Below, piece by piece: positions 17,831 through 53,098 of a stretch of 64,000 nucleotides of DNA. The stretch covers positions 6,386,001 through 6,450,000 of the forward strand of contig OZ024753.1 in NCBI GenBank assembly GCA_964016885.1, written 5' to 3'. Numbering within the stretch: position 1 is the stretch's first letter; each line of letters opens with the position of its first letter. The stretch comes from Eledone cirrhosa. Lineage: Eukaryota. The notes below the pieces were generated by a model. That model made no database searches, was not told the origin of the DNA, and worked only from the letters and a program-made list of their open reading frames with translations. Position numbers and translations under genes: made by a program.

Positions 17831-17918
17831 GTGTCCGTCGAACCTGCGGGTCCAGAATCAGACAGATCCACACAATGATCGCGTCTCCAGCTGTCCGCCG
17901 GCGAAACAATTGTAACAC
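17831..17918 (+). ncRNA. Hammerhead-like motif family F5 with expanded stem II
   Basis: GUGU-CCGUCGA-ACCUGCGG...CCGCCGGC-GAAA-CAAUUG-UA^-ACAC then AATAAA; core has two deviations; element 17810-17963 lies between (TA)n tracts. Confidence 0.5.
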
Positions 17919-18669
17919 ACAATAAATTGAGTTCGGATGCATCACTGATTATTCGTTTTCTATTATATATATATATATATATATATGAAAAACATGAGGA
18001 GAAGAATACTGCATGGTTGCACATGGATTACATAGTATAAAATTAGTCCCTCATCAATGATTTGCCAACGATCATTGGTATTTCATCGCATTAAAAATCA
18101 TATACCTCAGGTTGGTGCGAGCAATAACTAAAATAAGCTATTGGGACAAGTGAAACGCGTAAAGCGAGTGAGACAAGTAAACAACATAGAAGGAAAAGCT
18201 AACCGAAGATGGGAAGAAAAACAAGCAACATGGTTATCCGATCAGCATAAGCTGGGTGAATTTCATGAACGCTCAGCAAACAGACCTTTCGCTGTGAATG
18301 GGATGTGAGAAAGAAAGAATCCGACTCCTAGCGAACGGGAGGAAGTGAGAAGGGGAGAAACAGAGAGTGAGTGAGTGGAAGTGCGAGGAAGAGGTCAGTC
18401 TTTTCAAGACTATACAGAGCATTTGAAGTTGTCCCAAATTGAAGGTTGAGTACTTTAGACTTTGTTTTATCATAAGTTAAGGCTCTACTGATTTTTCCCT
18501 GGATTTCTCTAAATTATGTTGGATAAATCTCTATCCTGATTCCTTTTCAATTGAGTCTGAATTATTTTTCCCATATCTTATGTTAACTATTTTCCCATTT
18601 CGATGCTGTAGTCACATATATGTTATGGAATACTGTTAGCTTCTCGCTACAACAATTTCTATACTTTTC

Positions 18670-18706
<37 letters not shown>

Positions 18707-18786
18707 ATTTCGGGTTGAGTCGGAGGTAACCACAGTAAGTAAGGTACTCAATACATTGCAGAGTATAAAAGTTTTAATATAGATGA

Positions 18787-18835
18787 GATTCTACAGGACT
18801 AGAACTGTTTCATTCTTTAGAAATAATCAGGAATC
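18787..18835 (-). ncRNA. Hammerhead F6, probably inactive copy (CUGAUUA core)
   Basis: GAUUC-CUGAUUA-UUUCUAAAGAAU-GAAA-CAGUUCUAGUCCUG-UA^-GAAUC. Confidence 0.6.
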
Positions 18836-19204
18836 TGGGTATCAAAAAATAAATATGGTATTTATAGGTCTCTTCAGGTGGTAGAAGGTGGGGAGTGGGA
18901 TGGGTAGAGGTCATTGGTTGATAGAAAAGGGAATTCATTAAAAGCTAATTCTTTAAAGCTATAATTTATATTTAGAGTAACAAAAGCAGAAAGAATTCTA
19001 TAAACAAGTTCAGAATGTGTTGCCACTCCTTATTTTTAAGTTTCACTTAAGCTAACAATGCATAGATTTCAGGTGTCTATAAGATCGTTGGGGGTCAGTT
19101 ATTTTAATGAATTCACTTTTGTATCAACCAATGACCTCTCCCCATCCCACTCCCTACCCTCTCCTACTACCTGAAGAGACCTATAAATACCATATTTATT
19201 TTTT

Positions 19205-19253
19205 GATTCCTGATGATTTCTAAAGAATGAAACAGTTCTACTCCTGTAGAATC
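19205..19253 (+). ncRNA. Type I hammerhead ribozyme, family F6
   Basis: GAUUC-CUGAUGA-UUUCUAAAGAAU-GAAA-CAGUUCUACUCCUG-UA^-GAAUC; perfect stem I, stem III ACAG/CUGU. Confidence 0.8.
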
Positions 19254-19284
19254 TCATCTATATTAACACTTTTATACTCTGCAA

Positions 19285-19784
19285 TGTTTTACAAATAGTG
19301 ATATATTCAATACAAGAACTTATTATTTTAAGTTCTGTTTGAATAGTTCAAACAGAATTTAAAATAAGTTCTTGTTTTGAATATGTCACTATCTCTAAAA
19401 CAACTTGTGTATTTTATTTTTTTATACGCTCTCATCAGATAAAATACAAAAGTTGTTTTACAAATAGTGATATATTCAATACAAGAACTTATTATTTTAA
19501 GTTCTTTCTGAATAGTTCAAACAGAATTTAAAATGATAAGTTCTTGTTTTGAATATGTCACTATTTGTAAAACAACTTTTGTATTTTATCTGATGAGAGC
19601 GTTCGAAAAATGTTGGTACCCTTGAAATATATATAATAAAATAAATATTTTTTTATAAAGATAGCTTCCATTTATAAATATTATTGATATTATACTTCAG
19701 AACAATTTTGTAGAGTGCTTCTAATCTGTTATAAACTAAATTTGTTGAATAACCAACAAATTAAATAACTCATTGGTTATATAG

Positions 19785-19790
<6 letters not shown>
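19285..19790 (+). mobile_element. Family F4 element with inverted 5' duplications
   Basis: Hairpins 19285-19415 and 19426-19601 precede the hammerhead; the 3' tail AGAGTGCTT..ATAACCAACAAATTAAATA resembles 17012-17080; ends in (TA)n. Confidence 0.7.
19582..19643 (+). ncRNA. Type I hammerhead ribozyme, family F4
   Basis: UAUUUUAU-CUGAUGA-GAGCGU..ACCCUU-GAAA-UAUAUA-UA^-AUAAAAUA; perfect 8-bp stem I. Confidence 0.8.
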
Positions 19791-19817
<27 letters not shown>

Positions 19818-19926
19818 AACGAGTAGGACCCCGACGGCTGAGCTCAAGCCGTTTCGACGGCAAATTCTGGACTAAATTTACTTTGGTGCGTTATGGTCCA
19901 CCTGGTTCCTTACCACATTTCCTTCG

Positions 19927-19971
<45 letters not shown>

Positions 19972-20087
19972 TAAGAGGAATTCCAACTTTGTCTGATTTA
20001 CTCGTTTTATTTACAATCCTTTAAAATATATATAATATGGTATTATAATGAAATAGTATGATAGAATATTAAATTCTAAGTGTTAAT

Positions 20088-20126
20088 TGAACAAGTACTT
20101 TCATGCTTTCGCAATCTTCAGGTTCA
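20088..20126 (-). ncRNA. Minimal type I hammerhead, family F7 (mirror copy)
   Basis: Exact reverse complement of 20199-20237. Confidence 0.8.
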
Positions 20127-20198
20127 TGATATGTGGTGACAGTCGAGTTTGCAATTTTCACAGTTGAAAATTGCAAACTCGACTGTCACCACATATCA

Positions 20199-20237
20199 TG
20201 AACCTGAAGATTGCGAAAGCATGAAAGTACTTGTTCA
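20199..20237 (+). ncRNA. Minimal type I hammerhead ribozyme, family F7
   Basis: UGAAC-CUGAAGA-UUGC(GAAA)GCAU-GAAA-GUAC-UU^-GUUCA: perfect stem I, GNRA-capped stem II, palindromic stem III AGUACU. Confidence 0.85.
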
Positions 20238-20442
20238 ATTAACACTTAGAATTTAATATTCTATCATACTATTTCATTATAATACCATATTATATATATT
20301 TTAAAGGATTGTAAATAAAACGAGTAAATCAGACAAAGTTGGAATTCCTCTTATTAATATAATCTTCTATACACAATCATACACACCCTTGTATATTTAC
20401 CTATCTATATCTATATATATATATAATGATAATAATAATAAA

Positions 20443-20718
20443 AATTGTTTCTACTTTTGGCAAAAGCCCAGCCATTACACCAGTGCATCACTGGTACTTT
20501 ATTTTATCGACCCCGTAAGGATGAAAGGCAAAGTTAATCTAGGCGGGATTTGAAATCAGAATGGAAAGGGCCGTAACTCTATGCGTCAAAGCATGGTGTC
20601 CGACCCTCTACCGATACTGCCAATCGAATAATGATAATAATAATTGTTTCTACAATTGGCACAAGGCCAGCAATTATCCCAGTGCATTACAGGTATTTCA
20701 TTTTATCGACCCCGTAAA
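20443..20718 (-). mobile_element. SINE A full copy (20443-20625) plus truncated copy (20640-20718)
   Basis: Reverse complement of SINE A with (AAT)n tails. Confidence 0.85.
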
Positions 20719-20722
20719 ATGA

Positions 20723-21117
20723 GACGATTTGTTAAGCCTTCATTATGTTTATTGATTGGTCACGCGCGTTTCGCTATTGATCAGCTCAAGATTTGATTTG
20801 TATCGATCTGGAATCAAAGGCTCGTCGGACCTCTGATTCCAGAGTCGGGCCAGATCAAAACTTTAGCTGATCAATAGCGAAACGCGCAACAACAATCAAT
20901 AAACATAATTATTTCTACTTTTGGCACAAGGCCAGCAATTACCCAGTGCATTACTGGTACTTTATTTTATCGACCCCGTAAGGATGAAAGGCAAAGTCAA
21001 CCTCGGCGGGACTTGAACTCAGATCATAAAGGGATGTAGCTATGCTGGAAAGCATGGCGTCCGACACTTTACCGATATTGCCAATCCATAAACATAATGA
21101 AGGCTTAACAAATCGTC
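20723..21117. mobile_element. Inverted-repeat element family F8, hammerhead-like at 20758-20831 (-), interrupted by a SINE
   Basis: GACGATTTGTTAAGCCTTCATTATGTTTAT at 20723 mirrors ATAAACATAATGAAGGCTTAACAAATCGTC at 21088-21117; minus strand GGU-CCGACGA-GCCUUUGAU..AUCAAUAGC-GAAA-CGCGCG-UG-ACC. Confidence 0.65.
20910..21087 (-). mobile_element. SINE A full copy with 11-bp TSD
   Basis: TSD ATAAACATAAT at 20899-20909 and 21088-21098. Confidence 0.9.
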
Positions 21118-21265
21118 AATACACTGTGTAATTGCTGGCCTTGTGCCAAAAGTAGAAACAATTATTATATTACACTCTGAATAGCTCTACACCTCGTAAC
21201 AGACGTGAATCTAAACATCGAGTGTTCACCTGGGTGAACCTACATATCTTCACGTTACACTCCCT

Positions 21266-21307
<42 letters not shown>

Positions 21308-21471
21308 ATATGATGGACTCTCCTGTGACTCAGAGTTTAACCTCTCCATATATATATATATATAATAAAATTGGAGGCCATATTCAGTTAGTTCGGGTTT
21401 ATTTAAAACCCTGTTATATATATTTCCCTGAGGACTAAAAACCTTTATATATAGAGAGAGATAGATAGATA

Positions 21472-21945
21472 CATGTTTTATTAGCCACAAGGGCACACAA
21501 ATAAAGAGTTTACATACAGGTATATGAAAATAAAACTATTAATAAAATAACAAATAACAATTGAAATCCCCAATAGGGGGAGGTGTTACACAGGGGTTGT
21601 ACACACCCCGAAAAAATATACAACCCTCATCGCCAGGAGGACCAAGAGTGAGTACTCCCTGCCTCTCTTCCTCTTTTTCCTCAACCTACAGGCTTATATA
21701 GAGAGAAGGCCCAACCACTCGGGCCATCTTTGCCACATTCACGCACCTTTTATAAAATTTGCTGGGGTACAGCACCTCTCTCTCCATCCTGATTCTTCTT
21801 CCAAAATGATATTTGAAAAAACGAATCAGTTGCTCGCCGGAGAGAAAGGTATCTGACCTCAGCCCTTTTAACCTCGTCTACCATATAACCTCTTTCCCGA
21901 TAGCCATAACACAGGAAAACCGCCTCTCTCTCGTTTTTGAAGGAG
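21472..21945 (-). mobile_element. L1/Tx1-like LINE 3' end
   Basis: Minus translation MAIGKEVIW*TRLKGL...LIRFFKYHFGRRIRMEREVL...FYKRCVNVAKM resembles the Tx1 ORF2 C-terminus; 3' UTR ends CCCTTGTGGCTAATAAAA; flanked by (GATA)n. Confidence 0.65.
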
Positions 21946-22289
21946 ATAGATAGATATATGCATGTCTGAGCGTGAGTCTCATTAACCGTATATTTATATA
22001 TAATGCTTATTCTGGTATAAGTTTTATTATTGCTGAAATATTTAATGCAGAACTTATAATTGATATTAATGACTTATAAACTAAGCTGTGGCTGTGACAT
22101 GAGCACTAGACTTTCATTTGAAGTCTATTTTTGCTTAATTTATTATTTTACATATAGCATTTATTTATGTTTGATTCTCTGTCAAAACAGTATGATTACT
22201 TCATTAGATTATTCATATAATTTGAAGTGTCTAAAGTCTGCCTTGAGCATGGAGCCGCATCGGGCCAATGCCTATCTCGGTTCTTGTGA

Positions 22290-22430
22290 CGTGAATGGAC
22301 TGAGAGTACAAGACTATTGCTGGTGCTATTTGTCTGCTGAGTATACTGGAGCAACGTAAAATGAAGAGTTTTTTTTGCTCAAGAAGGCAACCTAGTCCAG
22401 GAATCAAACCACTAAGCCCCGCGCCTCCGC
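22290..22430 (-). mobile_element. SINE family B (CORE-like) fragment
   Basis: Minus strand GGAGGCGCGGGGCTTAGTGG..TTCTTGAGCAAAA..TTTTACGTTGCTCCAGTATACTCAGC, homologous to 56261-56600. Confidence 0.65.
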
Positions 22431-23675
22431 TAATTTGAAGTAAAAGAGAAAAATACTGCACAGTCATTAATTTTCAAACACTCAGACACTGAAACTATCG
22501 CATACACACACCTCGACACAGACACAGACAGATAGATGTGCTCACATGAACACACTAATACAAAGGAATGTATTCATTAATACAGACACGTTTGTAAAAG
22601 ATTTCTCTTATCCAATATTCTCTCATACATTATGACGAAATAACCGTATTTTTAGAAGGGACAGTATTCGCCCTTTCTAAAAACCAGGGCTAATAATGAA
22701 GTAGATATCATTTAAAAAAAAAGAACACAAATGACATTTACTAACAGAATCACATCACAATATATAGGGACACAATTGTAACACAAAGGCTAATGTTTTG
22801 TATAAACATATGTTTCTGCCATCCATTCAGAACACGGTACCATTGCTAGTAAGAACCTCTCTAAGCTATCCTCTACTAAGTAGATCCTTGGTAAAGCTTC
22901 CAATTATTATACTGCTTCATTTGTTAATAGTGGGTTTCAACATATGTTCCTAAACATTATATAATGACCAACGCCCAATATGAAATTAGAAATCCTAAGA
23001 CAGCATATTCCCCCCAATGAACACTCAAATATATTTCTAGGATAAAATTACATAGAAATGATAATGAATTTAATAATTTATCAAATAAATAGAAAAAGAA
23101 AGTAGTATTCGAAAGGTTTGTAAATGTTGTAAACGATGGGGAAAGGAGGAAAAGAACACGGATTATTAGGTAGAGTCGGAAATGAGTAAGAAATTCGCTA
23201 CCTATACGAACATTATCAAATGTAATAATAACGTAATAACCTAAGGGTCACCTTTGCCTAGAGACAGGGATCTCAGTCCACAGGGTATCAAGTGCTGGTA
23301 GACGTATACGTAAATAAAACAGTCAATTGCTTAAACTTAATATGAATCCATGTGGAACCTAAATTCATACAGACCAATTTAGCAGCATTAATTTTCATTT
23401 GATAGATAAGTAAATTATTCGGTAACTTTATTTCCCCATTTCTTTACATTAAACGGAGTGGTTGTATTCCTGGTTATTTGGTATTTTTCAATTTTTTTTG
23501 CCTCTGATTTCTTTCGGATGTAAACTTGCGTGATCTTTAATAATCAATTAAAATGCTATGTAGCTTAACGTTGAGAAAATACACATTAAGGTTATCTTAA
23601 TGATCACGTTTGGTAATAGGAATTATAATTCGACGCTCCCCACCCCTATTTCTCTCTCTCTCTTTCTCTCGCTCG

Positions 23676-23720
<45 letters not shown>

Positions 23721-23856
23721 AGAACATACTTACTATAAGACATGAATTTATCTGTTTTGTTTGGCATTTTTTCACGTTGAAATATTTCATCTTTTACTTC
23801 TGAGATTTCTAACGAAAGAAAAAATTATATGCATAATAGGTAGCTTAATTCAATTA

Positions 23857-24036
23857 GGCCAGTGAATTGGCAGTACCGGTAAAGGGTCGAACGCCATGCG
23901 TTGCAGCCCTCTACGTTCTGTGTTCAAATCCCGCCGAGGTTAACTTTGTCTTTCATCCTTACGGAGTCGATGAAATAAAGTACCAGTAATGCAGTGGGTA
24001 ATTGGTGGCCTTGTGCCAAAAGTAGAAAGAATTATT
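23857..24036 (+). mobile_element. SINE A
   Basis: A/B boxes, central domain and tail. Confidence 0.88.
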
Positions 24037-24467
24037 TTAATGCAACATTAAACTCACTTTCATGAAATGCTTTCTTCTTATCATTTCATTTCATTTATTT
24101 TTAGTGTCTTCATTTCGATGTTGTGTTTTATACTTATATACTCTTTTACCCTTTTACCTGTTTCAGCCATCCGGCTGAGGCCATGCTGGGGCATTATATA
24201 TATATATATATATATATATAACAGTTCATGTCCGTTTCTAATTTATTGATAAATGGCACAAAAACGTAGTTATATTAATTGCACGAATATACTGATTGAT
24301 TCCATTTCAAAACAATATAAGAAATGTATATAAAAATGTGTTTCATCTGCTCTTATAATAAATATTTGCTCTATGGGTTTATATATATATATATAATCCT
24401 TATCGAGCCCTCTTCGGATTTAAGTCTTAACATTTATTATTACTATATATATACGTATATATATATA

Positions 24468-25287
24468 TATATAGAATTCACAAGAATCAAAGCTATGTTC
24501 AAAGCATTTATTCACTTACAATTGTTTCATCCAAACGTAGGCTTGGTGTGTCTTCGGAGCATTTTTCAACGTTTGTACATATAATTGACTTCCTATCCAA
24601 CGCAGGAGACATACAGGTACATATATATATATATATATTGATGTACAGTGGAGTGACATATATTATACTATACTATATTTGTACAGCAATTCAAATATAA
24701 AATTAAAATTAAAATACATGCGGCAGATTACACAGATAATGTAAGAGGATTGTTTGTAAATCAGATCTAGTAGATAGTGTATGCGTTAGTCACACATGGA
24801 GCATGCAAGTATGTCTCATTTATATACGATTATTGTGTGGCAAGGTGTTACATGTAATGCAAGCACTTTAAGCGGGTAAGCAAGAGTAGTATGGTGGTTG
24901 TAGTGGTAGTGTATTTTTTGTATAGATCAAAACAGTATGTTTACACACACCTGTGCACCTGTTCTTTTTCTTTTTCTGCACACATACTTTTTTGATCTAT
25001 ACAAAAAATACCCTACCACTACAACCACCATAATACTCTTGCTTACCCGCTTAAAGTGCTTGCATTACATGTAACACCTTGCCACACATTAATCGTATAT
25101 AAATGAGACACACTTGCATGCTCCATGTATGACTAACGCATACACTATCTACTAGATCTGATTATCAAACTATCCTCTTACATTATCTGTGTTATCTGCC
25201 GCATGTATTTTAATTTTAATTTTGATTTTAAATTTGAATTGGTGTACAAATATAGTATAGTATAATATATGTCACTCCACTGTACAT

Positions 25288-25339
<52 letters not shown>

Positions 25340-25620
25340 CTGTATCTGTATGTCTCCTGCGTTGAATAGGAAGTCAATTATATGTGCAAACATTGAAAAA
25401 TGCTCCGAAGACTCCAAGCCTAGGTTTGGATGAAACAATTGTAAGTGAATAAATGCTTTGAACATAGCTTTGATTTTTGTGAATTCTATATAACTGCTCT
25501 GTAGAACAACTGATGTTATTACATTGAGCTATTTATCTTACTGGTAATAAGGTAGTAATAAATGACTGACCTTCCCTGTTTATAGTTTAAAATATACATA
25601 ACTATAAATAGTATCCTTAA
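24468..25620. mobile_element. Large inverted-repeat element family F9 (arms 24468-24940 and 24982-25492, plus 3' tail)
   Basis: About 470-510 bp arms, mostly complementary with scattered substitutions, ~40-nt spacer; (TA)n at both ends. Confidence 0.85.
25401..25447 (+). ncRNA. Hammerhead-like motif F9 (CCGAAGA core); mirror at 24513-24561 (-)
   Basis: UGCU-CCGAAGA-CUCCAAGC(CUAG)GUUUGGAU-GAAA-CAAUUG-UA^-AGUG then AATAAA. Confidence 0.55.
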
Positions 25621-27415
25621 TATTATATATATATATATATATATGTTTAGTCATCTATCATCTCTATCCACACAAATATTGAATATCATTAATGTTGTGA
25701 ACCTTCCCCCTGTTGCTATTAGGTCTATTTTGGGAAGAACACACGCACGCGCACAGGTGTGTGTAAACATAAATAAGGCTGTTATTTCTCGAATATATCC
25801 ACAAAACACCGAACAAACACCCCAAAGTAAACGTCATCATACAGTCTTAAATCCACCCTCCAAATTTGCAAACCAAACGCGCACTCATAAATATATTGGG
25901 TGGCTTTTGTGGTCCAAGTGTGTTTGTGTATTATGTGTGTGTATTATGTGTGTGTGTCTATTGGTTGTGTGTGAGTGCGTACATGCGTATTAACCTTATA
26001 TATATTCAAACACGTTCGGTGTTTTTCTTTAGATCTTCGTTCTCTCGTAAATTAACACCTATACATCCAATTAATAAAGACAGTAATGATGTTTGGATCC
26101 CCGTATATTACATAATGTATATCATTGACCAGTTTAATAAGAATATTACACCTGTCATGATTTTATCAATGTGAAGTGTGTGTGCTTATGTACATTACAC
26201 GTATATGATATACGAGCGTCCAGGAAACCCAGCTCGAAACATTCCTATGCTCCCAAAAATACTCAATAGATATCAGGCGGTCACTTAACGTTTTTTTCAT
26301 AGGGCAGCCATGTCACCCACCATTCAGTTCATTTGCATCAATTTTATACATGCGAGAGGCATCCGTATTCAATCAACCTTATATGACTTCCGAATTACAT
26401 ATCTAAATAAATAATAGCCAATTCAAAACAGGCACCTTCAAGTGATTCACATTTCAGCAGACAGGAATTATACACTCGAAAGTATATGAGAATTCATTTG
26501 ACATCATGTTTATAATGTCCATTCACAAAATGTCTCGCATATTCTCTTCAAATCTTCAATACAATCAATTGAATAACTTTTTATTATTTTCTCTAATTTA
26601 GAACAAATCTCGTTGTAAAATATTATTTGTGTTTAGAAGAAAAATAAACACATTTGCAGTCAAACCATTATGATGATATTTCAATAAAATTCACAAATGT
26701 AGCTTTAGAAATAAAGAAATTTCGAGAATGAAATCCCTGAAGACTCGTGACAATGTATTACGTTTAAATAGGATCCCAATATTTCGAAATTTAGTCCATT
26801 AATGTGAGTTGAAGAGCCCATGTGACCTTCCTTTGCAAGCTGTTTCCTGTTTTGGTTCAATAATAGCAGTTAGTTTAGTAGAGATTCAATGGAAACTTTC
26901 CATTCCAACATCTTCAACCTACGACACAGAAATTACGTTTATTTATTTATACTTTTAAATTGTTTTCCTTATTTTTCATTTCTATTCTTTTGCTGAGGGA
27001 ATGCAACTTGTGTAACATAGTTAGTAAATGAAATAACATCAATGATAAAAGATATTTTAGTAACAATTGCTTTATTCTTTTTCATTTTGTCATCATTTTA
27101 GAAGGTTTCTGTGTGTAAAGACCTGTGTTTATGCTAATGGCTGGTTTCATTGAGAATGTTTTACTTCCACTTTTACTGAAGATTCCTAAAGGTCAGAGAT
27201 ATCTCAGAGAAAAACTACCTTAAAAAGGTCTTTTAAATGTTTGTTTTCACTTGTTTTTTTTTTGTTTTTTTATTATTATTTTTTGTTCAAGTATTCTCAC
27301 GTGCAATGTTGTAAGGACGCTGTGTTGTTATTCAGTCTTCCACAAATATATATTATGTCTTATGCCCGATTGCATAATCATAGTTACGTAGATACGTAGA
27401 CGCGCACATACATTG

Positions 27416-27460
<45 letters not shown>

Positions 27461-28692
27461 AATATTATATATATATATGAATATTATATATATATATATA
27501 TATATATGTGTATATAAATGACATATATATGTGTATATAAATATTATATATATATGTGTATATAAATATATATAAATATTATATATGTGTATATAAATAT
27601 ATATATATATGTGTGTGTATATATATGTATATAATATGTGTGTGTGTATAAATATGTATATAAATATTATATATATATATATTATATATATATATGTGTG
27701 TGTGTGTATATAAATATGTATATAAATATTATATATATATGTGTGTGTGAGTCTAAGTTGGTATTGTGTGAATGTGAACATATGTGTGTTTATATCTATG
27801 TAGGGATGTACTCATAGGAGCTCAGATATATTTTTTAAGTATTTCTGAATGTTGCATTAAATTGAGAAGAATCTCAGAGGAACTTTAGGGAATAACTTGC
27901 CATATTATTTCTACACACACTTAGCCTGCTTTTGGAGAAACTAATAAAACTCAGATGCCTGTGAAGGGAAAGTATACACATGGTGTTCTAGCAATACCTT
28001 TATATTTCTTATTTAATTTTAATATTTAGCCAGAGAATAATGTGTTGTTATGTTTCATCTTGAGTATTGAAGTAGAGAAAAACACGACTGACGATATTAC
28101 TACTTGTACGCAGTTATATATTCTTTACATTCCATTTTATAAACTCTCGAGTCAACTCGTGAAAAGCGGTTACTTGACTTGCTAGATAAAGAAGCCTTGT
28201 GCTTTACAATTTTATATATCGTTTAATAAAGAGGAAGCGTCGTGTTCAGTGCGCATTTCAGCAGATTCGTGACTTATAGTGCTATGCGTATGGCATCCTG
28301 AACCTAAGGTTTTACCGAAATATTGCAAGATAATATACTCTGCTAAAGCCACCCAATAGATGACTTGCGATATTAAACTCGGTGAACTTTTATCTCAATG
28401 ATCCTAATGAATGAGATATCTACGGCTGCCGCATTAACCGGTGAAACTGTTCCATATTAACACCTGAAACTGACCTTTGTTTGCCGTTAGCCTGGTCAAT
28501 TATGTTGCTTTTATTTAGTCCAGATCAATGATTTGAGAAACAGACCCTCACCCTCATTCCAAGGTACCAAAAAGATATCATCGGCATTGCACTTTCTCCC
28601 ATGAATAAACAGCAAAACAATGAAAAAAAGTATTGAAATGCAGTGGGATATCTACTCAGTATGGTGATGTCCATAAATATATATTGTAAAAC

Positions 28693-37775: not shown

Positions 37776-37810
<35 letters not shown>

Positions 37811-39641: not shown

Positions 39642-39689
<48 letters not shown>

Positions 39690-40870: not shown

Positions 40871-41025
40871 ATATATATGTGTATGTATATATGCGTGCAC
40901 ATCTACACACAACACAACACAACACATGCACACACCCACACATGGACCCCCAGGAGGAAGGAACTTTCTTTCTCACTTACTCTCCCTATCTATCTACACA
41001 CACACAAATGTACATGCCCCCCCTA

Positions 41026-41074
<49 letters not shown>

Positions 41075-41659: not shown

Positions 41660-41829
41660 TAATTGTTCTGATTTAAACACAAAGCCAACAATTTTGGAGG
41701 TGAGGAAAGTCGATTAAATCGACATCGACATCCAGTGCAGTACTGGTATTTTATTTCATAGGCCCCGTAAATATGGAAAGCAAAGCTAACCTCAGCAGGA
41801 TTTGAACTCAGAACGTAAAGCGCCGTAAA
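41660..41829 (-). mobile_element. SINE A variant, 5'-truncated
   Basis: Reverse complement of central domain, B-box and tail. Confidence 0.8.
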
Positions 41830-44109
41830 TGAGAGAGAGAGACACACAGCGACAGAGAGGGATAGAGGCGTGTGCATGCGTGTGTGTGTACATACATACA
41901 CAATAAAAACGAGTTAAAATACGATGACAGTTAACACGATAGGGTGGACAAAAATTCAATAGAATTATAGAAAAATATATTTGTGTGAGATTTTTATTCT
42001 TCTAAATATATTTTGGGTGTTTCAATCAGATAATCATTTCAGGAATTTTGATACCACAATAATTTACAATGATTTATAAACGAATATTTTGCCGATATTT
42101 TTTCTTTCTCTTTGGCACCTTTTATATAATTGTTTTCCATATTGAACCACGTTGTTTTGTTTTTTGTGTATATATTTTTTAATTTTTGAATACGTAAACA
42201 AACATGGTCAGATATCATTTAATTATTTTTCAAACTAAGATAATTTTCTAATGCCATTATCAAGTAGGCTACACAAAAAATAACGAATTTCATAAATTCA
42301 AATCTAAAAAAAAAATGACATGTACAAATCAAAAATATTTTATGAACTAAAACAAGAAACATTACATTAATATATTGTTTAATATTTTAATACCAAGCAA
42401 AATACTGATACTTGATTTATTTGCCTCTGTACATCATTTTCAATAAAACATTTTTTAATATTATATTCCATTCGAATATTAGAGAAACGTATGGTCAGTC
42501 TTAAAGTTGTAAAAATAAATATCGGAAGCAATCAGGAAATATCTGTTTTTTTTTAAATCTGAATACATAATACAATCCGAAAAAGCAATAAGATGATATA
42601 TTATAAAAGAGACTATTAGTAAATCAGCGCATAATATCAAAACAGAAAAAAATATATATTAAATTATGTGCGGCTCCTCAAATGAAAATAAATGGAAGAT
42701 TTACACGTGACGTTTAACAAAATGAAGCCGAATAAGGAACAACTAATCAACACTGAAGTATTAGTTTAATACCTTACATGTGCTTACTGCTTTCATTTGC
42801 ATTCAGCTATCGTTTCTGTAAATTAAACAGGTTTGCATAATTAGAAGAATATTCTATGACTTAAAGTGCAGGCAATATTTTACGAATTAACAATCACTAC
42901 AGCAAAATCAACGGAAATAATAATAATAATAATAATACTGATAATAATAATTTTCTTGTTATTGCTATTATATCGTCAGTTTGTTATTTTCATTAATTTG
43001 CACAGCGTTTCTTGTTGAAACGAACCATCTAAAGCTTGCTGCCCTCTACATAATAGAGCGGTGAGACATGGGACAGAGTTTGCTGACAGCACTCAAGCAA
43101 GAATAACAACAACAACAGCAGCAACAACACAAACACCAACAGCTGTCGAAGCAGCAACATTTTTCGTAGACATCTGTAGCTCCCCAACGTGAAGTGGCGA
43201 TGAAGGGGAACCCTGAAAATGCTAAAGAGAAAAAAAGAAAACATTCTAAAAATAACAGCTTGCTTCACACCAATACATCCCCGAAAAAAAAGAAGGAAAA
43301 CACACTCACAACAATTATATACTCGCCCACAACAACTCCTGACGCACAACACCACATCCGTCAACGAACACCAGCAAAACTACCACAATCAAAACTACGC
43401 ATAAAAGGAAAAGTCAGAACAACAAACAACCACGCGGACACAAAGCCTCGTATAACTGACAAACTTTAATGAAGATCTGTTGAACTTAATAGCACGAAGT
43501 AAAGATCTTGAGATAACCGGAAAGATTCTCGGCACCTACAAATTTAGAGTGCCACAGAATTCAATGATGGTGAGCATGTCTCTTAAGACATGCAGATGCT
43601 TTAGTGCCAGCTTCCAATAGGACACGGGAATCCCACGAGTCGGGTATAAAAGGAACACCAACCAGATATGTGTTACCGGACAATCCGGACTCCAATTGCA
43701 CCTGGAGGATACATAACCCTCATCTGCCTCCTCTAGGCTCATTACGGCTATGGCGATTTCTAGAGCCGACTACATAAATGCATGTCGCATGGGGGTTGAC
43801 CTGGAAGGAAATTCATTTGTTCAACGTTCTCAGCTCACTAGCAAATTATCTTGTATATCTTAGCTATGATTAGGACTTTTATCTGTTCAATAAAAACCGT
43901 GATTTGCAATAAATTTCGTACGTATTCTAATAAACATGTAAATAGCTCTGACGAATGTGAAGTAATATCAATTATGATTTTCTCTACGAAAGGAAGGAAC
44001 ACATATTTTTACATTTGACCTTTTTAACATCGAGTATTATAATTTAAATCTCTTTTATGACTATATTAAAATGATGAACAACTTTCCAATGGAGGTCATA
44101 TTTCAGTTG

Positions 44110-44345
44110 AATATAAGAGATAAACACAAACACATACATACACAGAATACACACACACATACACACATACACACACATACATATACATATATATACATAT
44201 ATATATATATACATATATATAAATTTCGTTTCTGAATTTGTTTAGCAAGATTCTTTATCTGAAAACGTGTGTTGAAACCGATATTGTTATTGTGTATTTC
44301 TTATTGGCAACATGACCCTCCCAAAGCATAACAATATATATAGAG

Positions 44346-44376
<31 letters not shown>

Positions 44377-44389
44377 CATATATATATAC

Positions 44390-44436
<47 letters not shown>

Positions 44437-44584
44437 CACATATATATACTGTATATATATATACATATATGTATATATACATATATGCATATATATATAT
44501 ATGTATATATACATATTTATATATGTATATATATAATATATATATGTATATATATATGTATATATATATGTATATATATATATG

Positions 44585-44618
<34 letters not shown>

Positions 44619-44620
44619 CA

Positions 44621-44670
<50 letters not shown>

Positions 44671-45135
44671 TGTATATATATATATACATATATGTATATA
44701 TACATATATGTACATATATGTATATATATATGTACATATATGTATATATATATATACATATATGTATATATACATATATGTATATATACATATATATATA
44801 TATACATATATGTATATATACATATATGTATATACATATATATATGTATATATACATATATGTATATACATATATATATGTATATACACACACATATGTA
44901 TATGTCAGTCTAATGGTAATAAAACAAATTCAATATCTTCGCAAATAAATGAGCAATTGGCGTGTGTAATAGAAACATGGCTATATAGAGTCACTACGAG
45001 TTACTATAAGTAAACTTATATCAAATTAGGACAAGGTGTCCCATGTGACTAATAAACGCCGACCAAGATCAAACAGTAAAGTAAATAAAACTAATTAATA
45101 ACCATGCTCCACGACATAGAATTCGTATATATATA

Positions 45136-45166
<31 letters not shown>

Positions 45167-45380
45167 ATGTATACATTATATATATATACGTATTTATTTA
45201 TATATATATATAATGTATACATTATTTATATATATATATAATGTATACATTATTTATATATATATATAATGTATACATTATATATATATATATATATATA
45301 ATGTATACATTATATATATATATATATATATAATGTATACATTATATATATATATAAATGTATTTATGTATATATATATA
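44110..45380. repeat. (TA)n/(TATACA)n blocks including tandem AATGTATACATT(TA)n units at 45165-45365
   Basis: Direct reading. Confidence 0.9.
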
Positions 45381-46150
45381 CTAGCAGTGGTACCCGGCGT
45401 TGCACGGGATAAGGTATTTTGGAACGCGGGGCCCCAACAGACCTAATCGTGGAAAAACTGCGTGCCTGGACAATATGTAAAGAAAATAAACCGAATACTC
45501 TGATTGCTGGATAATCTTTAAGATTTTCCTCGGTGAAGCAGGAAAAATGCAGGTTTTCTCCTAATGCGGGCCCTATTGGATCAAGAAAGCACCTAATGCG
45601 GGCCCTAGGCCATAAAAAAGTTGGATTTTGTTTGCTTACCTTATGAAGAAGAGACTGACTAATGCATAGTTGCAATTTCAAGGAAATAGGTCTGACGTAA
45701 CGCCTCAAAAAAACACTAAAAATGTTAAAAAGCGCAGTTTTTCACCTAATGCGGGCCATAGGAGATGAAAAAAGTTGAATGTTCTTTGTGCGTAACACTC
45801 CCTGAAACATAAGTAATACACATGTAAAGTTTGAAAAAAATCGGTTGGGTACTTATCGAGCTTTAGGGATTCGAAATCACACACACACACACACAGACAG
45901 ACATCCTCAGACAGATATCATAAGGGCGCGACGTTATATGTATGTATCTATCTAAAAAGAGAAAGACTAAGAATTATAGAGCGAAATCGCTAAATCGCCG
46001 AATGCAGTCCCTAGGGCATTGAACATTTGAAATTTCTTTTGCTCAGAACACTCCCTGAAACATAAATATTACATGTGTAAAGTTTGCAAACAGTCAGTTG
46101 GGTGGTTCTCGAGTTTTAGGGATTCGAACTCACACACACAGACATCCTCA

Positions 46151-46155
<5 letters not shown>
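45380..46155 (+). mobile_element. Helentron/DINE-1-like non-autonomous rolling-circle element, 3' part duplicated
   Basis: 5' ACTAGCAGTGGTACCCGGCGTTGCACGGG (short stem-loop), internal CCTAATGCGGGCCC repeats, (CA)n-CAGACATCCTCAG 3' end at ~45910 and again at ~46150, inserted in (TA)n. Confidence 0.55.
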
Positions 46156-46194
<39 letters not shown>

Positions 46195-46887
46195 TGCATG
46201 CATGCATGCATGCATGCATGCATACATACATACATACATACATACATACATACATACACAATGGCGACTGTTGTGGTCAGTGTCCGATAATAGGACGTGT
46301 GTAATTACGGCTTACATGAAGGCAACATACGATATATTGGAAAAAGTTGAGCTACATTACGTGGTAAGATTACATACAATAATTCTACATAAGTGTTTGA
46401 ACTGTGTGTTGTAATACACCTATTTATATGAACGATACATACACTTATGATATATGAACGATACATACACTTTAACATATATGCAACGTTGTTATATTAC
46501 ATTTGTAAAGAAATATGCAAATAACGTTTTCGATTCAGAAACAAACACATAAGCGTTTGAACTGTGAGTATGTTGTAGAACACCTATTTATATAAATGAT
46601 ACATAAACTTTAACATATAAATACAACGTTGTTATATTATATTACATTCATAAAGAAATATACTAGGTAACGTTTTTTTTTTTGTTTTTTTTGTTCTCGA
46701 TTCAAACGATTCAAGAACAACGTTTAAAACACAGTTGTAGAATTAAAAACTAACTGAAAAAAAATATTACCCAAGCTGTGAATAACTTTAAATTTGATTT
46801 TGACAGAACTTTGTCGAAACTTTTAAAGAAGATCATCGACTATTTTGAAAAATAAATACAAAATATTAGTGAATAGACGAACTCATC

Positions 46888-47628
46888 ATGGCAAAACGTA
46901 CAAGTCTCTTTCGATCAAATCGCAACTACAACCGTAGTATACAGTGGAGCTACGAGCTTAACAAAAAATTATATGAAGCATACAAACAATCTGAACCCCA
47001 AAAGGTCGGTTTTATGCAAAGGCTAAAAACTTTATTGCACTCCAAACACCCAGAATTAGACTTTTCTCCAAAGCATTTAAATGAACAGGCAAAACGTATA
47101 ATTAGATGTAAATTGATACATCTAACGGAATTGAATGATACTACAAATACAGCCCTTGTAGACAACCACCCCACCCCCACTGACAGACAAACAGAATGGC
47201 CAGCTAAATCTAACAGTGAACAGCTCACCAACAATTTTGCTGAAATCCATCCCACTTCCACTGAAGAACAGCGAGAATGGTCAGCTAACTCAACAACGAG
47301 GCTGAAATTCAAGACTCTACTGTACAAACAGAACACCACAAACTTGTGGACACCTTACAAGTGATATGGGGCGATACGTTTCAAGAGATACACAGCCTTA
47401 ATGTGAGTGACAGACCATACAACACCAGAATCAGTAAAGAACCTAAATTGGAATTGGAAGCGGTGAAAGAAATAGCTGACAATTAACTGAAGGCTATACG
47501 ATCTAAAGGTGTAGAAACGACATTTGAAACGCTTAACATTTTGTTATGTTTCAGCTGTCACATTGCTATCATATAACACACATCTAAAACCACGCAATCA
47601 AGATACAAACCAAAAGCTTGAACCAGCG
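46888..47628 (+). mobile_element. 5' fragment of R4/Dong-like (RLE) non-LTR retrotransposon ORF
   Basis: QWSYELNKKLYEAYKQSEPQKVGFMQRLKTL..HPELDFSPKHLNEQAKRI matches the N-terminal W-x-x-E-x-N..Y-x-x-S-x-P..G(Y/F)M-x-R..P..L-x-x-Q motif; downstream YVSAVT..PAW; frameshifted. Confidence 0.6.
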
Positions 47629-49105
47629 TGGACAGCCTTGAGAAATGGGAATATTTTGTCACACATTGTTAGATTCGGAGAGGAAGGAACCCCCTCCACC
47701 TTTCCATCCCTCTCTCTCTTTCTCTCTTTCTCCTCTCTCTCTTTCTTTCTTTCTCCGATCTCTCATTCTCTCTTTCTCCTCTCTCTCAACATACAATTAT
47801 GTAACTATCCCCATCAGTTTTTCAGGCTAATACCTTATAATATATGTCATCGGGTTTTCCTAAACATCTACCAGGCAACACACCTGACAGCGCGCAATTC
47901 CTATCTCCCATAGAAAATATAATTAAAACTATTTATAAAAGGACATCTCGGAAATAGAGTACAGACCCGACAAACAGCGGTATCTCTCTTTCACGTGATA
48001 TAATATTTCAACATGCTATGCCTATGATTGCCGAGTACAATGGTAGCTAATCTAATATAGTTGTTTGTATTATATAATATAGTACATGCTCATGGTAAGG
48101 TATTGCTCCGTGTCATTGTTGGGTAAATAATTCCTGAAATTGATTTATAATGCTCAATAAGGAATTCTATCGTTTGGCTATGCATTATGTATGAATGAGA
48201 ACTATGAAATTATCTTCAGGTTATTGTTGCAGATATAATTCATTAATCCTCATCGTAACGTGAATGGCATCTTTCTCACGAAATGCATATTCAGTTGGTT
48301 GAATCAAGTTAACTCCCAGAGAAATCCCTAATAACAAATTCCCGTCATACCCATTATAGTATCCCTGATAAGATTAATTACATCACTAGGTATAGAACTA
48401 CACTATAGCTGTAAAGAAAATCATCACTGCAATGACAATTATTAAAATTAAAATTCACATACAGGGATATTGATACAAAGGAAAATAATCCGTTGCAGAT
48501 AAACCCGTTCGATTTCAAATAAAAATATGACAGTATAGATATAAATGTTTTATGGAGTGCATTTTGCGTACGTTTATCGTGTGGAACTAACTGCCATATC
48601 TTGCTCAAATTACATTATATTGACGTTAATGAATACACTATATTTGAAAACAGGAATAATCGTTATCGAGAAGTTTAAAAACATTTACTTCAAAGTGTAC
48701 ACCTGTCTTAAACATTATTACGATTGGGGATTCTAGCATTACTTTCTGACACTTTGAAAATATTTTACATTCTACTTTATTTGCTCTTTCCAACTCTTTC
48801 TTTTATTTGGTCACGTATTTTTGTATTTATATACGTGATTCTTTACTAATCATAACTTACCTTTGGAGTTCGTGTGCGTGTGTTGGGGAAAGTGTGTGTG
48901 TGTGTGTATATGTACATACAGATCTCTAAGATTTTCCCTTTGAACACTCCCTGTTTTTAGGTCCTCCACCATGGCCCTACTCCATAACATATTTGTTGTC
49001 TCTCCTGTTGTTTTCGGATCCGGCCTAGGTGATATATGATGTCTGCTATCAAGCTCTAACCTCCCAGCAGCAGCGGAGCTACTGATGGTCTCCGACCTTG
49101 CCACC

Positions 49106-49216
49106 TGAAAATCCCACCGAGGTTAACTTTGCCTTTCATCCTTACGGGGTCGATAAAATAAAGTACCAGTAATACACTGGTAATTTGCTAGCCTTGTGTC
49201 AAAAGTAGAAACAATT
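49106..49216 (+). mobile_element. SINE A 3' half
   Basis: Starts at a degenerate B-box. Confidence 0.8.
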
Positions 49217-50309
49217 CTTACTATCCCCTTCATCATCCGACGCTGGGCGCCGCCTTCTGATAGCAATTGTGGCACTAATCAATGGTTCATCCATGGCGTC
49301 CTGGACCCATACACCCGAGGCCTCTTCTTTTCGGCCAGCCTGACCGCTCTCAAGAGGAAATAGGCTAGAATACGCCACATCGATGTAGGCAATGTCTTCC
49401 AGAGGCTGACTGCTAAGGTGGTATGCAGGTCCATCACACCTGAACATGGTAAGGAGCTCAGCCCGGTGTTTCTTGTGGTCGGCGTGATTGAGAGGGCCGC
49501 ACATTCAGCTAGGCAGTTCTTCAACAGCTTCCCATCGGATTAGGCGTCGAGGAACGCCAGGCACTTAATTGTAAAGCTTTACAATTGAGCTTTACAATGC
49601 CTCCTTTTGGAATATCTTTAACTGCTACACGATGACTACCTGCTCGTTGTCTGCCTCAGCCGAGCCTCCGTTGTCTACTTGCTGGCCCAGCTGCAATATG
49701 GAGGGGCCCCGAACATGATCCTTGCTGTTGACACGTTAATAACTTCAGTCACTGGGCTTCAGCAGGAGACATTGACCGTGGGAGTTGGGTTCCATTGTGC
49801 TCAGAGCTGGTTTATATGTATATATTTATTTACCACACCGCATTAACTGTGGATTACAGAAGACATAATAATAACATTGATAATGTGACACTTGCTTTTC
49901 TTTCGAAATATGTAAAGATAATGCGAATATAAGTTTGGGTTTACCAATGATAATAGTATATATATTCTATCATATTTTCATGGTGGCATTTATAACTTCC
50001 ATAGAAATTTACATTTTAGGTTTCTCGGAGACATTAATGTAATCTATGATTTGTAAATATATTCACTATTCAGCGTGGATTGCGTTTGCATTTAATCAAT
50101 TGACGAACAGTTTCGTAATTCATTGATTTTCCAAATACTATATGTGTCATCATATTTAATAGAAATAATAGATATATCTCAGAGAAAGAATAAAAATTAA
50201 AAAATAAATAAATAAACAAATAGGTAAAGCATTTGGTCAAACAATTCCCTAGGGAATTAATTAATAATGTGTAAAATATCGACCACACTTAAATATGGAA
50301 TGATACGCG

Positions 50310-50400
50310 ATGTCCCCTCCCCACACATACAGTCCCGGCGGGTAGAGTTGAGAAGGCTTTCCCCGGAGAACGGCAAGGGAGGCGCGCTGGAAAAGCCATA
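50310..50400 (-). mobile_element. CRE-like LINE C-terminal fragment
   Basis: WLFQRASLAVLRGKAFSTL; a similar piece lies on + at 36540-36595. Confidence 0.6.
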
Positions 50401-50683
50401 TTATTGCGGTGAAATACGTAATTTTACGTGTTACACTCCTCCTCTATAAGAATGGCCAAAATAAAACCATTCAACAAATGGTTTCAACCATATGTCACGG
50501 TACTTATTTTGACGCAGTCTACATTTAAATGATGTGGTGTTACTCTACAGCCAAGAAGACTGGGTATGTACTTCATATGCAGTCAGCCTGCAAATTTGAG
50601 TCACTAAAAATTAATGTTTTGCATACCTAGCGTCTCTGCATTCCTGTAGCCAATGAAATAAATAAATTTAAAAAAAATATTAG

Positions 50684-50704
<21 letters not shown>

Positions 50705-50714
<10 letters not shown>

Positions 50715-51092
50715 TTCTACATTTGGCACAAGGCCAGCAAATACCCAGTGCATTAGTGGTACTTTATTTTTTCGACCCCGTAAGGATGAAAGGAAAGTTA
50801 ACCTCGGCGGGATTTGAACTCAGAATGATAATAATAATAATCATAATAATTGTTTCTACTTTAGGCACAAGGCCAGCAATTGCCCAGTGCATTACTGGTA
50901 CTTTATTTTATCGACCCGATAAGGATGAAAGGTAAAGTTAACCTCGGCGGGATTTGAACTCAGAATAATAATCATAATAATTGTTTCTACTTTAGGCACA
51001 AGCCAAGGAATTTCCCAGTGCATTACTGGTACTTTATTTTATCGACCCCGTAAGGATGAAAGGCAAAGTTAACCTCGGCGGGATTTGAACTG
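50705..51092 (-). mobile_element. Tandem trimer of SINE A 3' halves
   Basis: Three ~125-bp units, each (AAT)n + tail + central domain, ending at GGGATTTGAACT. Confidence 0.9.
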
Positions 51093-51195
51093 ATAATAAT
51101 AATAATCATAATAATAGTAATTATTATTATTATATATATATGTATATGTATGTATGTGTGTGTGTGGGCGGAGGTGGGGGGTGGGGTGATAATGG

Positions 51196-51246
51196 GGCTT
51201 CTTGATGATTTATCCCGAATGAAACAGTCCTAGTCCTGTAGAAGCC
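51196..51246 (+). ncRNA. Hammerhead F6 copy (UUGAUGA core)
   Basis: GGCUUC-UUGAUGA-UUUAUCCCGAAU-GAAA-CAGUCCUAGUCCUG-UA^-GAAGCC; stem I covaries relative to 19205. Confidence 0.65.
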
Positions 51247-51426
51247 ATGTCTCTATTAAATATTTATACTCTGCTATGTATGGAGTACCTTACTTACTGT
51301 GGATACCCCGATTGAAACCGGGATAAACATATATATATGTATATATATCAGAATGGAAGCGGTAAAAACCAGTTAGATAATTACTCAGGTTGGGTAATAG
51401 GAAAAATTCGGGTGAAATCATCAGGA

Positions 51427-51476
51427 AGCTCCTGATGATTTCTCACGAGTGAAACAGTCCTAGTCTTGTAGAAGCT
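51427..51476 (+). ncRNA. Hammerhead F6 copy preceded by an inverted head
   Basis: AGCUC-CUGAUGA-UUUCUCACGAGU-GAAA-CAGUCCUAGUCUUG-UA^-GAAGCU; GAAATCATCAGGA/TCCTGATGATTTC fold-back at 51414-51442. Confidence 0.65.
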
Positions 51477-52134
51477 TTTCTATATTAAAAATGTATACTC
51501 TACACTGTATTGAGTACCTTATTTACTATGGTTACCTCCAATTGAACCCGGGATAACTTATATATATATATGAGAGAGTGTGCTTTTTAATAGTAGGTAA
51601 TGCACTGCGTATACTAAAAATCTAATGTGATGTAAAAAGCAATGAAATAAATAAATAACTTCCTATATCTTGGGAGCTATTTAGACGTTGATTTATTGTA
51701 ATCTATCATATGGAAAAAGGAAACAAAACTATGAAGAACAAATCTAACTATATATCGTATAAAAAATATTTTAATATATTTTTGCAATCCATTTTTTCTG
51801 TCATACCAGGAGACACTTCTATAATATTCATATCTCTAGCGAGAAAGTAAGATAAATGTATCCGATATGAATTACTTGTGACAAATGACTTTAATAAAGC
51901 TATTCCGAATTATTTTATTCACAATTTTTTCGCCTTGTCTAATACTTTGTCTAAACTATGTAGAGCATCTTAACTTTTGTTCTATTTCTGATATATTAAC
52001 TAAAAATTATGATGTAAATTTTTGCTTTATAAATAGAAAAAAATTTCGCAGTTAATAGTTCTCATTCAATGTGGATGTAACTTATTTGACCATCATAGCC
52101 AATACTTTAAATACAAAAGCGATGAAAAAATATA

Positions 52135-52815
52135 ATAATTGTTTCTACTATTGGCACAAGGCCAGCAATTAACAGTACATTACTGGTACTTTATTTTATC
52201 GATCCCGTAAGGATGAAAGGCAAGGGGAAGGTGGAAGTCGATTAAATCGACCCCAGTGCTGTTACTGGTACTTTATTTTATCGATCCTGTAAGGATGAAA
52301 GGCAAAGTTAACCTCGGCGTGATTTGAACTCAGACCGTAAAGGGCCGTAACCCGATGCTGCAGAGCATGGCGTTCGACCCTCTTTCGATACTGCCAAATA
52401 ATGGTTTCTAATATAGGCACAATGTCAGGAATTTTAGGAGAAGTAGATTAAATCGACCGCAGTACGTGACTGGTACTTTGGCTTTCGTCCTTACAGGGTC
52501 GATAAAATAAAGTTAACCTCGGTGTGATTTGAACTCAGACCGTAAAGGTCCGTAACCCTATGCTGCAAAGTAAGGCATCTGACCCTCTTTCGATACTGCC
52601 AAATATGATAATGAAACAGTAACTTATAATAATTGTTTCTACTTTAGGCACAAAGCCAGCAATTACCCGAGTGCATTACTGGTACTTTATTTCATCGGCC
52701 CCGTAAGGATGAAAGGCAAAGTCAACCTCGGCGGGATTTGAACTCAGATCGTAAAGGGACGTAACTATGCTGGAAAGCATGGCGTCCTGCCCTCTACCGA
52801 TACTGCCAATCCACC
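52135..52815 (-). mobile_element. Cluster of four SINE A copies or variants
   Basis: Repeated central domains and B-boxes. Confidence 0.85.
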
Positions 52816-52927
52816 AAAAAATAAACACACTCACCAATAGACAGTACTGGCCAAATGATAATCCCCAAATATAACAATATCGGTTTCAACACGCGATATC
52901 ACATTATGAATCTTACACGTGTGAGTC

Positions 52928-52969
<42 letters not shown>

Positions 52970-53013
52970 AAGAAGAAGAACGATTTGTTATGTCTTCGTT
53001 AAGTTTATTGAGT

Positions 53014-53098
53014 AGTAACGCACGTTTCGCTATTGATCAGCTCATTGTTCGATCTGTATCGATAGTGTCCGACTCTGGCATCAAAAGCTCGTCGGACC
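53014..53098 (-). ncRNA. Hammerhead-like motif F8 with CCGACGA core and expanded stem II
   Basis: GGU-CCGACGA-GCUUUUGAU...AUCAAUAGC-GAAA-CGUGCG-UU^-ACU then AAUAAA; the element starts at (TA)n ~52965. Confidence 0.6.

Follow-up and report, generated by a model that had tools for sequence, protein, structure and literature searches.

Can a hammerhead ribozyme motif that carries C instead of U at core position 4 be the common state of a repeat family, or do such motifs mark copies that were each canonical when they were inserted? This question is raised by 64,000 nucleotides (nt) of the Eledone cirrhosa genome (GenBank assembly GCA_964016885.1, contig OZ024753.1, positions 6,386,001 to 6,450,000, forward strand; the window), in which five type I hammerhead motifs have a C4 core. 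These motifs are called F5, F8a, F8b, and the two arms of F9. Our preferred reading, to which we assign a probability of roughly 0.58, is that F5, F8a, and F8b are dispersed copies of one short-repeat lineage that carries a minimal type I hammerhead with C4 and a long stem II, that they likely come from the ends of Penelope-like retrotransposons, and that the source RNA would act slowly, cleaving in dimeric form after GUC. The motif is a variant of the hammerhead and not a new ribozyme class.

The window has a G+C content of 30.5%, plentiful (TA)n tracts, and no long genes. It was scanned with a type I hammerhead descriptor in which core positions 4, 6, and 7 were left free, and which was loosened one time, after hits had been seen. 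The 14 matches comprise seven with U4, five with C4, and one each with A4 and G4. Chance is expected to yield 0.34 C4 matches per window, and five or more were reached in none of 100 block-wise dinucleotide shuffles; the C4 set is beyond chance. All five cores lie where a preliminary description of this DNA had placed them. Relative to the type I core (C3 U4 G5 A6 N7 G8 A9; G12 A13 A14), each departs by the change of U4 to C and keeps the other bases, except that F5 also has U at A6. The CCGANGA consensus originally given for these motifs thus holds for F8 and F9 and not for F5, which reads CCGUCGA. In all five, three stems surround the core, the structure is open at stem I, A15.1 faces U16.1, and stem III is complete only as a dimer. 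The GAAA, near-palindromic stem III, and matching stem I that had also been described are present, with only 3-4 pairs in stem I. Cleavable triplets follow the rule NUH. Position 17 conforms to it in F5 and F9 (A) and in F8b (U), and breaks it in F8a (G). An Rfam search of the whole window returned no family at gathering score, and within 16500-26000 hammerhead families stayed undetected even at E≤10. Rfam likewise misses the canonical-core minimal motifs present here.

F8b is a unit of a multi-copy repeat on the minus strand (52985..53112, its extent drawn from read depth and loose ends). Its CCGACGA core occupies 53089..53095, with C4 at 53094, and is followed by a stem II domain of 60 nt (53029..53088). 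The closing segment (53014..53028) holds GAAA, stem III (53025-18, the palindrome ACGUGCGU), position 17 (U, at 53017), and the 3′ arm of a 3-base-pair (bp) stem I that ends at 53014. According to folding and alignment, the stem II domain starts with a base helix of nine positions, interrupted at step 4 by a pyrimidine mismatch, and continues with a 2-nt bulge, 3 bp, and a variable insert. The base helix quoted earlier for F8 in general is that of F8b. F8a has its hammerhead arm on the minus strand at 20723..20835 (from sequence and self-BLAST), with CCGACGA at 20828-22, a stem II domain that at 49 nt (20821-20773) is one insert unit short, stem III at 20769-62 (palindrome ACGCGCGU), G at position 17 (20761), and a 3-bp stem I that ends at 20758. 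Head-to-head with this arm, on the plus strand, lies an inverted, 5′-truncated, coreless copy (20836..20909) that includes a core-complementary segment at 20844-51. A copy of a repeat that we read as resembling a short interspersed nuclear element (SINE) has been inserted into the inverted arm (20905..21095), beyond which the tail resumes at 21081..21117 on the plus strand, at 97% to 20723-59. Because the SINE-like copy splits the inverted arm, F8a is older than that insertion. The same repeat is abundant in the window, with more than 20 pieces in self-BLAST, and we take it to resemble cephalopod SINEs.

The state of the wider F8 family was approached by aligning the F8b region alone (52985-53360, at 80% likeness) to public sequencing runs from three organisms, with contigs for runs X1, X4, and X6 and reads for X23. 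Matches numbered 2023 of 16.3 million contigs in X1, 604 of 17.6 million in X4, 4 of 8.3 million in X6, and 690 of 12.5 million reads in X23. Because depth is limited to about 52985-53112 and the X1 loose ends past 53112 agree poorly after five letters, the F8 unit is estimated at about 130-135 bp. Position 17 is C in 98% of X1, 91% of X4, and 278 of 288 X23 reads, and hence the majority triplet is GUC. The base that restores the palindrome at 53022 is found in 78% of X1, 67% of X4, and 261 of 297 X23 reads, so that the majority stem III is perfect. In triplet and palindrome, the family majority is a better hammerhead than the F8b copy. Position 4 (53094) is absent among the 40 difference rows listed (of 122), which by our arithmetic cover changes present at roughly one quarter or more of the depth in their best run and whose ranking rule is not stated, and one X1 record prints the C4 core. 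The changes seen most often in the aligned family are C>T and G>A. Since U4 is not among the leading differences, it is likely that C4 is the consensus of the F8 family and U4 a minority state, as the original proposal of a C4 family variant would have it for F8.

F5 is a plus-strand, type I hammerhead-like unit between (TA)n tracts (17811..17962, ends approximate). Its core (17835..17841, with U4C and A6U) is preceded by the 5′ arm of a 4-bp stem I (17831-34), and a distal part of stem I is predicted to pair 17811-24 with 17928-42. The stem II domain of 61 nt (17842..17902) is predicted to be one long, unbranched hairpin, with A10.1 facing C11.1 at its base. GAAA, stem III (palindrome ACAAUUGU), A17, and the 3′ arm of stem I follow at 17903..17918. 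The window copies are in part decayed: F8a by G17, and F5, which is probably a decayed copy, by A6U and A10.1.

Several comparisons connect F5 with F8. No gap interrupts the alignment of the three copies across the core or across the first 15 and last 14 nt of stem II. The F5 and F8b inserts, with ends chosen by us, outscore 5000 of 5000 shuffles, and the tails are alike (p=0.0025, shuffles). When the register is taken from F8, five of 11 stem II pairs carry two-sided compensatory changes between F5 and F8, the pyrimidine mismatch is kept at step 4, and the 3-bp helix after the 2-nt bulge is invariant. Pairing is possible in 95.6% of stem II cells, a value matched by four of 500 shuffles; slid registers are 18-49% paired. 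These observations suggest that the base helix of the long stem II has been kept by compensatory change between F5 and F8. Because both lineages carry C4, parsimony would place these repairs after the origin of C4. The stem II domains of 61, 49, and 60 nt in F5, F8a, and F8b agree with the length of about 50-60 nt first assigned to them. A covariance model of the three copies, searched against the window, recovered besides them only the F8a inverted arm and its tail.

F9 is a family apart. It forms a fold-back of about 500 nt whose arms, 24468..24940 on the minus strand and 24982..25492 on the plus strand, are 88% identical and therefore represent one event, so that the five C4 motifs are not five events. 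Self-BLAST and the descriptor place the left hammerhead at 24513-24561 (core 24557-51, stem II 22 nt) and the right one at 25401-25447 (core 25405-11, stem II 20 nt). Both read CCGAAGA and share the palindrome ACAAUUGU and a stem I of four pairs, two of which are G-U. The F9 tail shows no kinship to those of F5 and F8b in a shuffle test (p 0.47 and 0.58). The C4 motifs hence appear to fall into two lineages, F5 with F8 and F9 by itself, rather than the single variant class suggested at the outset, and the enlarged stem II attributed to F9 is of an ordinary 20-22 nt, joined to the same tolerated C4 change. As an observation common to these motifs, AAUAAA occurs 4-7 nt past the predicted cut site, in the stem I loop, in F5 (17921-17926), in F8 (53004-53009 and 20749-20754), and in both F9 arms.

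The U4C change is not new. A natural viroid hammerhead with U4C (Ambros and Flores 1998, cited in PMC3088659) is reported to have much lower activity in vitro that suffices in vivo for infectivity. When viral contigs were searched with one fixed stem II pattern, C4 was found in 56 stretches and A4 or G4 in 11, against about 1200 with U4 (an estimate from 7 of 64 parts). Among distinct sequences, stems I and III are both present in 94 of 106 with U4, 32 of 45 with C4, and one of nine with A4 or G4. Transition bias and related phages raise the C4 count, which is hardly enough to account for 32 versus 1, and C4 is thus tolerated in nature. A view of U4C as unprecedented is not supported, given the viroid example and the 32 complete viral-contig motifs. 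Long loops also have precedent, as two PLE-X motifs have a loop II of 35 nt and 29 nt (PMC8557442 File S2); every motif listed in that table reads CUGA. No report of a C4-majority Penelope-type family was present in the literature searched, a search outside which lies Lunse et al. 2017, the likeliest place for such variants. The main text of an octopus repeat annotation does not mention ribozymes. A core-unbiased F5/F8 pattern matched three stretches in viral and 11 in metagenome sequence, of which none resembled a hammerhead when inspected, and F8-specific patterns gave no match in genome contigs and two unrelated viral matches.

The interior of the enlarged stem II bears on how such RNAs might behave. 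With the core held free, all three domains are predicted to fold as unbranched hairpins with internal loops. Their interior looks like two or three degenerate tandem units of about 11 nt on a conserved helix, with one unit missing in F8a. The possibly branched added domain that had been envisaged thus gives way to a predicted unbranched one of 49-61 nt that varies between copies and is lacking in F9. The first insert unit of F8b (53067..53073) is an exact 7-bp complement of 53097-53091, which spans the end of stem I and core positions 3-7 (p 0.007-0.05, shuffles; noticed after the fact). In the minimum-energy fold, this unit pairs with stem I and the core, and a later unit takes the freed 3′ arm. 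This OFF fold is predicted to be favored by 7.9 kcal/mol in the F8b monomer and to form by about nucleotide 51 of the growing chain. The corresponding monomer gap is 0-1.1 in five canonical-core controls, 0-0.5 in F9, 0.1 in F8a, and 2.4 in F5. As dimers, the gap is 11.8 kcal/mol for F8b, 1.3 and 3.1 for two controls, 2.4 for F5, and 9.3 for F9p, the last because of intermolecular stem II pairing. An 8-bp form of the complement links the F8a core with the insert of its inverted arm (-16.4 kcal/mol; p 0.001-0.16 by measure), and the same form is present in the loose-end majorities of X1, X4, and X23. In these predictions, the lock gains 2.2 kcal/mol from C4, and a U4 core would leave a gap of 5.7 kcal/mol; the lock therefore does not explain C4. 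A further reading, which we regard as rather improbable, makes F8 a self-locking hammerhead: an anti-core strand in its enlarged stem II would trap the ribozyme OFF during transcription, another part would stand in as partner of the freed arm, cleavage would depend on a retrotransposon protein or partner RNA, and C4 would have been fixed as a component of the lock.

The proposed origin draws on the anatomy of known elements. Minimal Penelope-like hammerheads have a short stem I, a long stem II, and a palindromic stem III for dimer cleavage, and are found mostly as single copies or close opposite-strand pairs (PMC4209133; PMC6765202). This minimal architecture of the hammerheads in pseudo-long terminal repeats (pLTRs), with its palindromic stem III, is that of the C4 motifs. 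Inverted 5′-truncated companion copies and a bias toward insertion at (TA)n are further habits of Penelope-like elements (PMC8557442), and in the window inverted companions are present at F8a and in the F9 fold-back and (TA)n tracts flank F5. Directly upstream of F8b (53123-53153), part of the F8 insert recurs as a short inverted copy, a second sign of fold-back insertion, and strand switches account for six of the 12 joints listed in the aligned runs. The link to Penelope rests on this anatomy because no reverse transcriptase or endonuclease was found in the nine frames translated upstream of F8b and F9.

Compared with the minimal hammerheads of PMC4209133, the window motifs share the type I order, a stem I of 3-4 bp, the palindromic stem III, the long stem II, and dispersal as single copies or opposite-strand pairs. 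They differ in having C4, where the core variant described there is U3-A8, in the length of the stem II domain (49-61 nt) and its bulged helix, in the core-complementary segment of F8, and in that no adjacent open reading frame was found. The (TA)n bias, inverted 5′-truncated copies, and occasional long loop II are also traits of the Hydra, Chlamys, and PLE-X hammerheads (PMC8557442), some of which, like some neighboring motifs of the window, have U-U at the base of stem II. Searching the supplement text of that report for the F8 and F9 motif strings gave no match, although line breaks may conceal one. A CCGACGA ... GAAAC string in Chlamys-1_meVir, considered as a candidate for the missing ribozyme of Naiad/Chlamys, was rejected by eye: its core letters pair with the stretch before GAAAC, and stems I and III are absent. 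Among the 10 listed places with CCGANGAG, the nine others did not resemble a hammerhead. The viroid U4C hammerhead (PMC3088659) has the same core change, whereas in F8 this change is the apparent majority state of a multi-copy genomic repeat with a minimal, dimer-type ribozyme.

Animal non-LTR retrozymes are likewise short, non-coding repeats with type I hammerheads that are thought to be moved by Penelope-like elements (PMC7229834; bioRxiv 10.64898/2026.07.22.740005). The window hammerheads are minimal rather than canonical, and tandem copies are lacking both in the window, where the covariance-model search gave only dispersed or inverted copies, and among the 12 listed joints, none of which goes back. 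Because there is no tandem array, these elements fall outside the definition of a retrozyme. Animal retrozyme RNAs are predicted to keep their core unobstructed, whereas F8 is predicted to mask its core, as do plant retrozymes and viroids (PMC7229834; bioRxiv 10.64898/2026.07.22.740005).

In the most likely mechanism, the RNA of the source element would carry the hammerhead near its end, and two RNA copies would associate by way of the self-complementary stem III. Cleavage would follow the GUC triplet and be slow owing to C4. In F8, the first insert unit would already pair with stem I and the core during transcription, and cleavage would occur only after refolding, most likely aided by the protein of the element. 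Penelope-type reverse transcription would then insert copies at AT-rich or (TA)n sites, frequently accompanied by a truncated twin in inverted orientation, and the copies would subsequently decay. A published Penelope hammerhead cleaved only once protein was added, and cleavage was not needed for insertion in vitro (PMC11167929). These findings support protein-assisted refolding and also the idea, taken up below, that the F8 source had lost cleavage altogether.

Several observations weigh against the reading of F5, F8a, and F8b as one C4 lineage with a slow, Penelope-derived ribozyme. Nine translated frames upstream of F8b or F9 gave no relevant Pfam match to a Penelope reverse transcriptase or endonuclease (16000-26000 and 50000-58000 were not scanned more widely). 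A mutational scan of another hammerhead found low activity for changes in the CUGA turn (PMC9901934). The remaining 82 difference rows include at least eight G>A places, which leaves room for a U4 minority, and one X23 loose-end group (43 reads) has U4 in a core that is otherwise broken. The covariation is drawn from three sequences, effectively two lineages, and permuting the GC-rich arm of F5 by itself gives just p=0.048. F5 has no core-complementary segment (p 0.66-0.99, shuffles), and the segment is lost from the F8a hammerhead arm. The F5 insert complements a U4 core better than its own C4 core, and perhaps C4 may have arisen twice or the F5 insert may have decayed. For F9, C4 is known from the window copies alone.

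Among competing explanations, one holds that the F8 source had already lost cleavage through C4 and the masking segment and spread regardless, since reverse transcription needs no ribozyme, with its hammerhead features inherited from an older, active ancestor. We consider this unlikely, though deserving of serious attention. Catalytic mutants of a Penelope hammerhead left insertion in vitro unaffected (PMC11167929), CUGA-turn mutants are weak (PMC9901934), the OFF fold of F8b is predicted to be strongly favored, and all copies in the window show additional defects or a stem I that is weak, at 3 bp. Such an origin fits poorly with five two-sided stem II changes between lineages that both have C4, with a family majority whose triplet and palindrome are better than those of the copies, and with the recurrence of C4 in complete phage hammerheads. 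Another history, in which each copy was canonical at insertion and U4 later mutated to C, is very improbable. It has in its favor that the copies are old and have other defects and that U to C is a transition. C4 is nevertheless shared by F8a, F8b, F5, and both F9 arms, no convincing A4 or G4 motif rises above chance in the window, and U4 is no leading difference in the aligned F8 family, in which C>T and G>A prevail among the changes. For F8, this history is largely refuted.

The insert might instead have been selected as a regulatory module, one that holds the core locked until a refolding by protein or partner RNA; C4 would then be retained for its pairing to G in the lock. The complement of 7 bp in F8b, and of 8 bp between the F8a core and inverted arm and in the X1, X4, and X23 majorities, is consistent with such a role, as are the common variants at 53066 and 53068 that keep pairing, the second partner that the insert offers the freed 3′ arm, and the 2.2 kcal/mol that C4 contributes. 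However, the complement was noticed post hoc and is absent from F5 and the F8a hammerhead arm, and the pairing-preserving variants are plain transitions. Moreover, the lock would persist with U4 at a gap of 5.7 kcal/mol, which leaves C4 unexplained, and F9 has C4 without an insert. We therefore hold selection for a lock to be distinctly doubtful and prefer the reading of a slow, dimer-cutting ribozyme lineage derived from Penelope-like ends.

The neighborhood holds other sequences of possible relevance. Approximately 10 canonical-core minimal hammerhead-like motifs of several families occur at 2624-, 11976-, 12258-, 16919-, 19210+, 19590+, 20121-/20204+, 28971-, 51432+, and 56881- (the sign gives the strand). 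The 20121-/20204+ motifs form a head-to-head fold-back pair, and about 20 nt upstream of them (20141-, 20184+) lies a short motif that resembles the 5′ end of the F8 unit in loose ends past 53112, perhaps a shared start or boundary signal. A hammerhead-like motif with G4 at 57924 on the plus strand is at chance level for the descriptor. Other CCGANGA strings (18203, 36862, 38703, 57926, 52698, 47853, 45533, 28584, and 24417) did not pass the descriptor. A near-perfect GC-rich fold-back at 13035-13125 has GAAAC and a small hairpin and no upstream core, with a further copy at 19860 (19830-19880). Upstream of F8b, beyond low-depth sequence, is a second multi-copy repeat (53232-53322), one frame of which has a Cys-x-x-Cys motif that gained no Pfam support; Pfam also gave no support to a Cys-rich frame upstream of F8b that faintly resembles the end of an endonuclease. 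A broken reverse transcriptase fragment on the plus strand at 15620-16450 (RVT_1, E=2.9e-5, under the curated cut-off) resembles, in our reading, a long interspersed nuclear element and is not tied to the hammerheads.

What appears to be new here is a hammerhead family with a probable C4 majority and, in F8, a segment of 7-8 nt that is complementary to stem I and the core and is predicted to mask the latter. Because hammerhead surveys use a CUGANGA descriptor with a short stem II, they overlook families like F8. The number of Penelope-linked ribozymes may consequently be underestimated, and claims that some clades lack one may be overstated. If C4 is the majority state of an amplified family, then a genome could dispense with U4 over evolutionary time. 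Should the masking segment be real, it would directly account for the poor cleavage of Penelope hammerheads on their own and for the better cleavage in the presence of protein. Finally, if the self-locking interpretation were true, a mobile element would carry built-in allosteric control.

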